A stretch of DNA of 64,000 nucleotides, taken from contig JBCCIC010000008.1 in NCBI GenBank assembly GCA_039028435.1, forward strand, positions 110,865 to 174,864, written 5' to 3'. The notes below the pieces were generated by a model. That model was not told where the DNA came from, did not search any database, and worked only from the letters and a program-made list of their open reading frames with translations. This document shows, piece after piece, positions 20,650 to 21,568 of the stretch; the first letter of the stretch is position 1; each line of letters starts with the position of its first letter. Both the position numbers and the translations under genes were made by a program. Source of the stretch: Actinomycetota bacterium (GTDB lineage: Bacteria; Actinomycetota; Acidimicrobiia; Acidimicrobiales; UBA10347).

Positions 20650-21107
20650 CCGCCGCATCGACACTCGACTGTCTGCGGGGCGGTCCGGTGCAGATGGCGT
20701 ACGCGGTGCCAGACCTGCATGCCGCGGTCGCCGAGTGGGAGGCCAAAGGCGCCGGCCCGTTCGTGGTTCGCGAACACATCGAGGTCGAGCCCGCCTGGTT
20801 CGATCACTCGTCGGCGTACGGCTGGTGGGGGAGTGTGATGGTCGAGTTGGTCTGCGTCCACGCACCTGCGGAGTTGGGTGGTGAGGGGTTGCATCACCTG
20901 GCGTTCTTCGTCGACTCGTTCGACCAGGCGACGGCGGAGCTGACCTCGGCGGGCTACCCGGCGGTGCTCACCGCTCGGGCGGGGACGACCGACTTTGCGT
21001 TTCACGACGCCCGCGCCTCACTCGGTCACCTGATCGAGATCTACGAGGGCTCAGCGGGGCTGCGTGACTTCTACGCCCACATCCGCGGGCTGCACACCGG
21101 CGGCTAG
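20646..21107 (+). CDS. VOC/glyoxalase family protein
   Basis: Q.AY.V.DL, GLHHLAF and D.R..LGH.IE motifs. ATGA overlap. Confidence 0.85.
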   Translation: MTAASTLDCLRGGPVQMAYAVPDLHAAVAEWEAKGAGPFVVREHIEVEPAWFDHSSAYGWWGSVMVELVCVHAPAELGGEGLHHLAFFVDSFDQATAELTSAGYPAVLTARAGTTDFAFHDARASLGHLIEIYEGSAGLRDFYAHIRGLHTGG

Positions 21108-21568
21108 CCCAGGAGTTGTTTGGCTGCGTTGCCGGCGCGGTTGTTGAGGTTGGCCTGGCCGCAGACCAGGATCAGCTCGCCGAGCTCGACCTCGGAGTAG
21201 TGGAAGCGCAGCTCCTCGATCAGCTCGACCGGGAGTACGGCGGTTTCGCCACACATCGCGTCGGCCAGCTCGAGCGCGGCGTGGGTCTTGTCGTCGAAGA
21301 CGTTGACCCAGGTCGTCGGATCGCGGAGCGCGTCGAGCTCCTCGTCGGTGGCACCTCGTCGTCTCGCCGAGACGACATGACCGTCCAGTCAAGTGGGACA
21401 GTCGTTGATGATCGAGGTTCGGATGAACAGCAGTTCCTTGAGCGTGGCCGGCACCGACTGGTCGTCGGACCAGAGCACCTTGCCGAAGTCGCTGTAGATC
21501 TCGGTCCCCTCGACCAAGGCGAGGGTGTACCCGAGCGGGGCACCGGAGAGTTTCGGACGGAGCTTCAT
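21104..21568 (-). CDS. AhpD/carboxymuconolactone-decarboxylase-like protein with in-frame TGA (probable selenocysteine, CxxU)
   Basis: Manual translation: GAGGAG RBS, ATG 21568, MKLRPKLSGAPLGYTLALVEGTEIYSDFGKVLWSDDQSVPATLKELLFIRTSIINDCPT*LDGHVVSARRRGATDEELDALRDPTTWVNVFDDKTHAALELADAM...IEELRFHYSEVELGELILVCGQANLNNRAGNAAKQLLG-TAG. The TGA is codon 60 (21389-21391). Confidence 0.88.
21358..21376 (-). promoter_or_regulatory. Bacterial SECIS-like hairpin
   Basis: mRNA reads UGA-CUGGACGGUCAU-GUCGUCUC-GGC-GAGACGAC: a perfect 8-bp stem with a G-leading loop starting 12 nt after the UGA. Confidence 0.75.

Follow-up and report, generated by a model that had tools for sequence, protein, structure and literature searches.

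Evidence for a UGA-recoded AhpD-like selenoprotein gene with a covarying SECIS hairpin in an Acidimicrobiales genome

The current work concerns a stretch of 64,000 nucleotides from a marine genome of the actinobacterial order Acidimicrobiales (assembly GCA_039028435.1, contig JBCCIC010000008.1, positions 110,865 to 174,864 of the forward strand), called the window below, and a gene on its minus strand that is interrupted by one in-frame TGA. The reading of this gene as a UGA-recoded selenoprotein is strongly supported. It very probably encodes a functional AhpD-like/CMD protein in which selenocysteine (Sec) at residue 60 stands at the second Cys of the catalytic relay, with a selenocysteine insertion sequence (SECIS) downstream of the UGA. 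The UGA is conserved among orthologues, and homologues with Cys in its place exist. The RNA structure behind it covaries, the genome holds the Sec machinery, and the protein belongs to the AhpD-like family by profile and fold and keeps the relay residues. A sequence-only reading of the window, made from its letters and open reading frames (ORFs), had already proposed such a gene.

Reading frame and features of the gene

The window lies on contig C8 of a metagenome-assembled genome (MAG) of 5.77 Mb in 29 contigs, 96% complete and with 4% contamination. The features of the gene are as follows.

21104..21568, minus strand: coding sequence (CDS) of the AhpD/CMD-like selenoprotein, 154 residues, start ATG at 21568-21566, end TAG at 21106-21104
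21571..21576, minus strand: Shine-Dalgarno-like GAGGAG, 2 nt before the ATG, read directly
21434..21436, minus strand: codon of Glu45, counterpart of the proton-relay Glu36 of PA0269 (Pseudomonas aeruginosa) and Glu118 of Mycobacterium tuberculosis AhpD
21377..21400, minus strand: active-site codons C57-P-T-U60-L-D-G-H64, aligned with Cys48, Cys51 and His55 of PA0269
21389..21391, minus strand: proposed Sec codon UGA, residue 60, the sole in-frame TGA, at the second Cys position of C-x-x-C
21377-21388, minus strand: spacer of 12 nt between the UGA and the hairpin
21358..21376, minus strand: proposed SECIS stem-loop, 12 nt 3' of the UGA, with the 8-bp stem GUCGUCUC/GAGACGAC and the apical loop GGC
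21161..21163, minus strand: codon of Cys136, the third invariant Cys, within the conserved C-terminal motif CGQANLNNRAGNAAKQLLG

The frame from ATG 21568 to TAG 21104, with a single in-frame TGA at 21389-21391, is exactly the one that the sequence-only reading described. Read through with TGA as U, it gives 154 residues containing ...KELLFIRTSIINDCPT-U-LDGHVVSARRRG... (IINDCPT-U-LDGH). The ribosome-binding site of that reading is the GAGGAG hexamer at 21576-21571; the position of the Shine-Dalgarno sequence varies among orthologues, so the hexamer carries little weight. In the orthologues, the N-terminus MK[ILV]R.KL[ST]GAP is kept from residue 1 onward. Translation with table 11 breaks the frame into an ORF of 59 aa (21389..21568) and shorter downstream ORFs. 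The splitting by standard gene callers that had been foreseen is thus real, and public protein sets hold 53 fragments of such genes.

Conservation of the UGA codon and selection on both sides

Orthologues were collected from the genomes of the genus and from a scan of species-representative genomes, which contributed 23 loci; the resulting 32 loci were reduced to 27 distinct CDSs. An orthologue occurs in all 8 other genomes of the genus at 65-75% identity, with one TGA in 7 of them and none in 1. The record titles of the 23 further loci name mostly uncultured Acidimicrobiales MAGs. In 26 of the 27 distinct CDSs the UGA column holds TGA, and in the remaining one (L026) it holds TGC, a Cys codon. 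The motif of the Sec forms is C-P-T/S-U in 24 cases, C-A-T-U in 1 and C-D-T-U in 1, and the Cys orthologue reads C-E-T-C. Cys is also found at this column in the near-full-length database proteins P0002-P0006.

Continuation of the coding sequence past the TGA had been claimed for about 95 codons, and substitution patterns bear this out. Over 325 pairs, of which 246 and 281 gave finite values, the median pairwise dN/dS is 0.174 on the upstream side of the UGA and 0.194 on the downstream side. Since selection is alike on both sides, the downstream 94 codons are translated.

Among 401 sampled Acidimicrobiia genomes (congeners excluded), only distant relatives with at most 37% identity were found. 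These carry Cys at the UGA column in 15 of 19 cases and TGA in 4 of 19, with no other residue. Thus, in all DNA that was read, the column of codon 60 contains TGA or Cys and never anything else, which is the outcome that the selenoprotein reading calls for. The four distant homologues with TGA in the same column (L039, L041, L044 and L046, from other Acidimicrobiia) are CMD proteins of 28-31% identity with the motifs C-H-Y-U and C-P-F-U, suggesting that CxxU selenoproteins of the AhpD fold recur across Acidimicrobiia.

A separate observation concerns the residue after the first Cys. Pro accompanies Sec at this position: C-P-T/S-U is present in 24 of 26 Sec forms and in none of the 5 Cys forms (C-E-T-C, C-A-S-C, C-D-T-C). 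This association could be a matter of redox tuning, or else the codon context might affect recoding.

The SECIS hairpin

The sequence-only reading had claimed a perfect 8-bp hairpin that begins 12 nt past the UGA. It is present, and its apical loop, GGC, contains the G expected of bacterial SECIS elements. By itself such a hairpin is not unusual: the window, of 67% G+C, contains 17 perfect 8-bp hairpins with loops of 3-7 nt, and 20 first-order Markov resamples gave 13.9 on average (range 8-21). For any given span of 13 nt, the probability that such a hairpin starts there is about 0.003. The significance of the hairpin is instead settled by its retention in orthologues.

Covariation was evaluated on the 26 Sec forms, which give 25 distinct rows and 200 cells, against 500 shuffles and against helices in which the 3' partner was slid by 1-3 columns. 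In the 8-bp helix, 98.5% of the 200 cells are paired, compared with 21.5-74.5% when the partner is slid. Compensatory changes are found in three of the eight pairs, namely alignment columns 27/41 (CG 12, UG 10, UA 3), 29/39 (UA 22, CG 3) and 30/38 (CG 24, UA 1). The covariation score was reached by none of the 500 shuffles, and the number of double-changed pairs by 8 of 500. Two of the compensatory changes cost an amino acid: V66A accompanies AGA to AGG, and R69K accompanies GTC to GTT. The Cys orthologue provides a natural control, because it keeps the near-identical peptide VISARRR, yet 4 of its 8 stem positions are mispaired, and the stem is broken only there. The proposed check of hairpin conservation among homologues therefore turned out in favor of the element.

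Codon usage in the stem is also restricted. In the 7 hairpin codons the major codon has a share of 0.85, versus 0.59 for 62 conserved columns elsewhere. For Arg69, all 25 Sec forms that have Arg there use AGA (22) or AGG (3), and the Cys form uses CGA; in the long open frames of the genome, AGA and AGG make up 1.3% and 2.9% of Arg codons. Other TGA-containing genes of the genome have hairpins that start about 11-15 nt past the UGA, with loops GGC or GGUCU.

Invariant positions flank the stem. Although the G+C content is high, all 26 Sec forms have CAT as the codon of His64 (21377-21379, alignment columns 22-24), and T24 and G44 of the alignment, one on either side of the stem, are both invariant. 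Taken together, they suggest that the SECIS stem may be extended by a U-G pair.

The SECIS element of Escherichia coli fdhF is a stem-loop that closely follows the UGA within the coding region and carries a G in its apical loop. The hairpin described here differs from it in its unrelated sequence and shorter loop (GGC), and no bulged U was identified in it. Its position agrees with the general description of bacterial SECIS elements given in a 2026 preprint and in the text of a 2026 review (PMC13188914).

Selenocysteine machinery and genetic code of the genome

A Sec system had been implied by the gene, and selA, selB, selC and selD are all found in the genome above the respective cut-offs. 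The tRNA-Sec scores 64.9 bits (gathering score 47), and ARAGORN assigns it the anticodon TCA (UCA). The selA gene (388.9 bits) and the adjacent selB gene (262.4 bits) are located on contig C1, and selD (380.3 bits) itself contains an in-frame TGA (...HGAG-U-GCK...). A further TGA-containing gene is an fdhA-like molybdopterin oxidoreductase, in which the codon lies in ...CNRT-U-HAPS.... Both genes have a hairpin after the UGA.

C20:68167-68610, plus strand: fdhA-like gene
C13:116744-117667, minus strand: selD (L018)

TGA is the stop codon of 2423 of 3488 long open frames and of 5 of 7 neighbouring genes. As it ends most long open frames, the code of the organism is the standard one.

The sequence-only reading had called a Sec system uncommon in actinobacteria, and for this class the statement fails. 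A selA match was found in 9 of 9 genomes of the genus (8 above cut-off), among them the genome with the Cys form, in which the match is truncated. Of the 401 sampled Acidimicrobiia genomes, 273 have selA above cut-off (269 of 397 once four unpublished genomes are set aside), and at E<=1e-30 it is matched in 218 of 314 high-quality genomes. According to the 2026 preprint, the Sec machinery is present in all 84 genomes of Actinomarina, which belongs to the same class. Actinobacteria were called selenoprotein-rich as early as 2006 in the text of PMC1794560.

Family, fold and active site

The claim of an AhpD/CMD-like protein with the TGA exactly at the second Cys holds by profile and by alignment. 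The Pfam profile CMD (PF02627) matches residues 24-102 with 50.1 bits (cut-off 23) and spans the UGA, and the AhpD core profile TIGR00778 is passed with 45.7 bits (cut-off 27.8). The narrower families that were searched are not reached. Canonical AhpD (TIGR00777) gives 14.6 bits versus a cut-off of 191.95, NF053654 (YciW-related) 34.2 versus 310, NF041047 (GSU3128) 26.7 versus 110 and TIGR01926 18.2 versus 81.8, and NF041238 shows no match at E<=1.

The AlphaFold model, computed from the alignment of the 27 sequences, has ten helices and is confident, with pLDDT 87.1 and pTM 0.84. In the Foldseek search, ranks 1-10 are all chains of PA0269 or Atu0492 (one entry titled AhpD) with TMq 0.58-0.64, and the listed matches down to rank 34 are all AhpD-like/CMD proteins with TMq 0.56-0.66. 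A phmmer search of PDB sequences gives PA0269 with E 2e-11, and residue n of the selenoprotein corresponds to residue n-9 of PA0269. The relay for proton transfer has been described as Glu36, Cys48, Tyr50, Cys51 and His55 in PA0269 and as Glu118, Cys130, His132, Cys133 and His137 in M. tuberculosis AhpD (PMC3141380). E45, C57, T59, U60 and H64 align with the five relay residues of PA0269, so that the UGA column falls on Cys51. All 27 orthologues keep E45, C57, U/C60 and H64.

Cys136 is likewise invariant in the 27 full-length orthologues. In 3 of 6 C-terminal database fragments examined (ids given: P0023, P0031, P0032, P0034), the same column contains Ala or Val; Cys136 is thus not universal in the wider subfamily. 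The short N-terminus, which the sequence-only reading took as the sign of a distinct subfamily, is better understood as the topology of the PA0269/Atu0492 type, with the catalytic helices in the N-terminal half.

Proposed mechanism and its alternatives

In the proposed mechanism, the ribosome would read the UGA at codon 60 as selenocysteine. The 8-bp stem-loop with its GGC loop, 12 nt downstream, would act as a bacterial SECIS that recruits SelB and Sec-tRNA(Sec), and the tRNA-Sec, SelA, SelB and SelD for this recoding would be provided by the genome. Sec60 would replace the second Cys of the relay Glu45...Cys57-x-x-Sec60-x-x-x-His64. In Sec/Cys pairs, Sec usually occupies the position of the nucleophile. 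In M. tuberculosis AhpD the attacking residue is Cys133, which would place Sec60 at that position. Because the relay residues are matched and invariant, a thiol/selenol redox cycle is proposed: the enzyme most likely alternates between selenol/thiol and C57-U60 selenenylsulfide forms, and the cycle would reduce a peroxide, an oxidised peroxiredoxin or a disulfide partner.

A true selenoprotein could also have a chemistry other than that of AhpD, for instance another activity of the CMD fold, as a reductive dehalogenase that depends on a thiol or selenol like Bmp8, as a disulfide or persulfide reductase, or as a protein handling metals or metalloids. Such a role would be compatible with the lack of AhpC or another conserved partner nearby, and the CMD-fold debrominase Bmp8 is in fact among the fold matches (6ohj, rank 22, E 0.016). 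PA0269, the nearest solved relative, is described in PMC3141380 as having only weak peroxidase activity, and for the invariant C136 and the motif N140-N142-N143-R144 the AhpD relay offers no stated equivalent. The protein nevertheless matches PA0269 and M. tuberculosis AhpD at all five relay positions, four of them invariant, and AhpD-like proteins, not Bmp8, come out best in both the sequence and the fold search. A non-AhpD chemistry is therefore considered rather unlikely.

Decoding of the UGA as Trp, Gly or Cys, by a reassigned code or near-cognate read-through, is very improbable. One database protein, P0007 (JGI, 137 aa, N-terminally cut), reads C-P-P-W at the Sec column; its Trp could stem from a genuine TGG codon or from a TGA that a metagenome caller translated under code 4. 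Against such decoding stand the use of TGA as an ordinary stop, which makes the code the standard one, and the Sec machinery, with a tRNA-Sec of anticodon TCA and selA, selB and selD in the same genome. In homologues the UGA column aligns only with Cys, and plain read-through would have no need of the conserved hairpin, which Sec insertion requires.

A nonsense mutation, an error of sequencing or assembly, a pseudogene and a boundary between two small genes can all be dismissed as explanations of the TGA. The broken frame under table 11 and the 53 fragments in public gene calls might be cited for them, but the TGA keeps its column in CDSs from independent MAGs (which makes a shared assembly artefact implausible), dN/dS downstream equals that upstream, the CMD match spans the TGA and the Cys-form homologues are contiguous proteins.

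Several points weigh against the interpretation as a UGA-recoded AhpD-like selenoprotein. In one of the five measures of covariation, the number of further standard pair types, the observed value of 5 is no higher than the shuffled mean of 5.2, and 470 of 500 shuffles are as high. The stem lies within the codons of a conserved peptide, VVSARRR, and some of its conservation is therefore at the protein level. A scan of 20900-21800 against Rfam at E<=10 found no SECIS family and only chance-level hits to mir-48 and ArcZ. Bacterial SECIS elements are poorly represented in Rfam. The Sec genes lie on contigs other than that of the window, in a MAG of 29 contigs and 4% contamination. The model resembles solved AhpD-like proteins to a moderate degree (TMq 0.58-0.66, rmsd 5-9 A), and M. 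tuberculosis AhpD appears only at Foldseek rank 45 with E 0.66. As neither AhpC nor another partner is conserved next to the gene, a peroxidase-coupled role is an analogy. Selenium insertion is what we infer from the sequences, and the enzyme activity, redox chemistry, substrate and oligomeric state proposed for the selenoprotein have the same footing.

Comparison with known selenoproteins and AhpD proteins

AhpD-like selenoproteins were said by the sequence-only reading to be known from environmental genomes, and the literature agrees. CxxU selenoproteins of the AhpD-like/CMD kind were reported from the Sargasso Sea in 2005 (PMC1088965). The Global Ocean Sampling (GOS) study of 2008 lists "AhpD-like 1" (COG2128) and "AhpD-like 2" (pfam02627) selenoproteins (PMC2398784), and the CxxU proteins are listed again in the 2026 review (PMC13188914). 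As far as the texts of the 2005 and 2008 papers describe them, these marine selenoproteins resemble the present one in belonging to the PF02627 family, in the CxxU motif with Sec as the second residue, in a SECIS 3' of the UGA with an apical G and in their marine metagenomic origin. Compared with the named NCBIfam (seleno)protein families, the protein forms a distinct sequence subfamily that is below every cut-off and is found only in Acidimicrobiales MAGs. The TIGR01926 family ("peroxidase-related enzyme") includes a CxxU selenoprotein of the same genome, a paralogue on contig C14 with C-H-Y-U, 142.5 bits and a hairpin 12 nt past the UGA; the gene under study has only 18.2 bits on this model and is thus of a different subfamily.

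The small hexameric AhpD-like protein PA0269 (PDB 2O4D, 2IJC, 7XW1) is the best match in both sequence and fold (ranks 1-6). In both proteins the pair of catalytic helices sits in the N-terminal half, and they share one relay; they differ in the motif, Cys-Pro-Thr-Sec here and Cys-Ala-Tyr-Cys in PA0269, with an identity of about 28-30%. M. tuberculosis AhpD (PDB 1KNC, 1GU9) is similar in placing the proton relay in a helix-turn-helix (as described in PMC3141380), whereas its motif lies at the C-terminus, its chain topology is another one and its ahpD is co-transcribed with ahpC.

Evolution and representation in databases

A tree of 34 rows was built with the Sec/Cys column masked and three distant Cys homologues as outgroup. 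The five Cys forms constitute one clade (99/94) inside a group of 29 rows (99/100) to which the Sec forms L058 and L059 do not belong. These two are the earliest-branching Sec forms, and their hairpin sequence is the same as in the rest. The simplest history would be a single origin of Sec and SECIS followed by one reversion to Cys, a scenario preferred because L058 and L059 share the hairpin sequence; by parsimony alone, one gain with one reversion is indistinguishable from two gains of Sec.

In a collection of 5.8 billion proteins, 59 relatives were found. Six are near full length (5 with Cys, 1 with Trp), and the other 53 are fragments of 84-105 aa that cover 38-61% of the query. The six fragments examined all begin past the Sec column and are unnamed or carry the names "hypothetical protein" or "alkylhydroperoxidase family enzyme".

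The sequences suggest a Sec-dominant subfamily, so far seen only in Acidimicrobiales MAGs, which is probably new within the known kind of CxxU AhpD-like selenoproteins. As that kind was described in 2005-2008, the finding is an annotation correction rather than a surprise. The literature searched contained no description of this subfamily. The term "AhpD" is absent from the Actinomarina preprint, and neither the 2026 review nor the BSepDB paper (PMC13326102) has "Actinobacteria", "Actinomycetota" or "Acidimicrobi" anywhere in its main text. The supplements and tables of PMC1088965, PMC2398784, PMC13188914 and PMC13326102 may already list members of the subfamily. A stronger proposal is offered tentatively, as one that we regard as quite possible without leaning towards it. 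In it, the gene would be the founding member of a hitherto undescribed, Sec-dominant subfamily of the PA0269 type that is confined to marine and environmental Acidimicrobiales, with 26 of 31 full-length forms containing Sec, the five Cys forms in one derived clade, a conserved SECIS of its own, the motif C-P-T-U, and a lineage in which CMD-fold selenoproteins have expanded to at least 5 per genome.

Genomic neighbourhood and related genes

The gene is monocistronic, with a convergent neighbour of the glyoxalase fold on one side and a divergent GGDEF gene on the other. No linkage to ahpC was found, and no flanking gene is common to more than 3 of 27 loci (the three largest clusters are ORFs that overlap the gene itself), so the gene context gives no functional clue. 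Directly upstream of the glyoxalase-fold gene, with a 4-nt overlap with its start, lies a molybdopterin oxidoreductase gene.

18484-20649, plus strand: molybdopterin oxidoreductase of 721 aa (Fe4S4, molybdopterin and dinucleotide-binding domains), no in-frame TGA
37485-37697 (C8:148349-148561), minus strand: another CMD-family match, 41.1 bits, in an open frame of 398 aa, no in-frame TGA

An AT-rich perfect inverted repeat, ACGTATAT-(9 nt)-ATATACGT, occupies 21624-21648 in the intergenic stretch that separates the selenoprotein gene from the divergent GGDEF gene (ATG 21650). It is striking in a genome of 67% G+C and could be an operator or promoter element. A promoter scan gave 0 sigma-70-like sites, and a terminator scan gave one site, at chance level. 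In four orthologues (L022, L026, L027 and L028), the 30 nt upstream that were examined contain a -10-like CATACT or GATACT that stops 7-8 nt short of the start codon. They lack a Shine-Dalgarno sequence, a combination that points to leaderless mRNAs in these orthologues; the window copy has GAGGAG instead. Among the listed sequencing runs, no RNA run holds the stretch, and one DNA run does; it is labelled marine metagenome and is possibly the source of the stretch.

Outside the window, the genome contains four further CMD-fold genes with a CxxU TGA.

C14:6859-7047, plus strand: L071, C-H-Y-U
C8:36092-36268, plus strand: L072, C-H-T-U
C8:104599-104790, minus strand: L073, C-H-V-U
C2:8208-8414, plus strand: L074, C-L-W-U

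The first is the TIGR01926 member mentioned above (142.5 versus a cut-off of 81.8), and the other three pass no specific NCBIfam model. With these four, the genome has at least 5 candidates for AhpD-fold selenoproteins.

Implications

The main value of the finding is in the correction of truncated entries, as 53 of 59 database relatives are C-terminal fragments. It also indicates that a scan of sequence is able to recover true selenoprotein genes which callers cut in two. What is known of the mechanism of Sec decoding and of the AhpD fold is unchanged. The hairpin is a well-supported actinobacterial SECIS, with covariation and a Cys form as natural control, and it could seed a covariance model where Rfam has no match. 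The gene adds evidence that Acidimicrobiia, a major uncultured group of sea and soil, use selenocysteine widely, with several redox proteins of the AhpD fold per genome. If the tentative view of a distinct, Sec-dominant subfamily is true, it would point to a selenium-dependent strategy of redox defence specific to an abundant uncultured group of actinobacteria.

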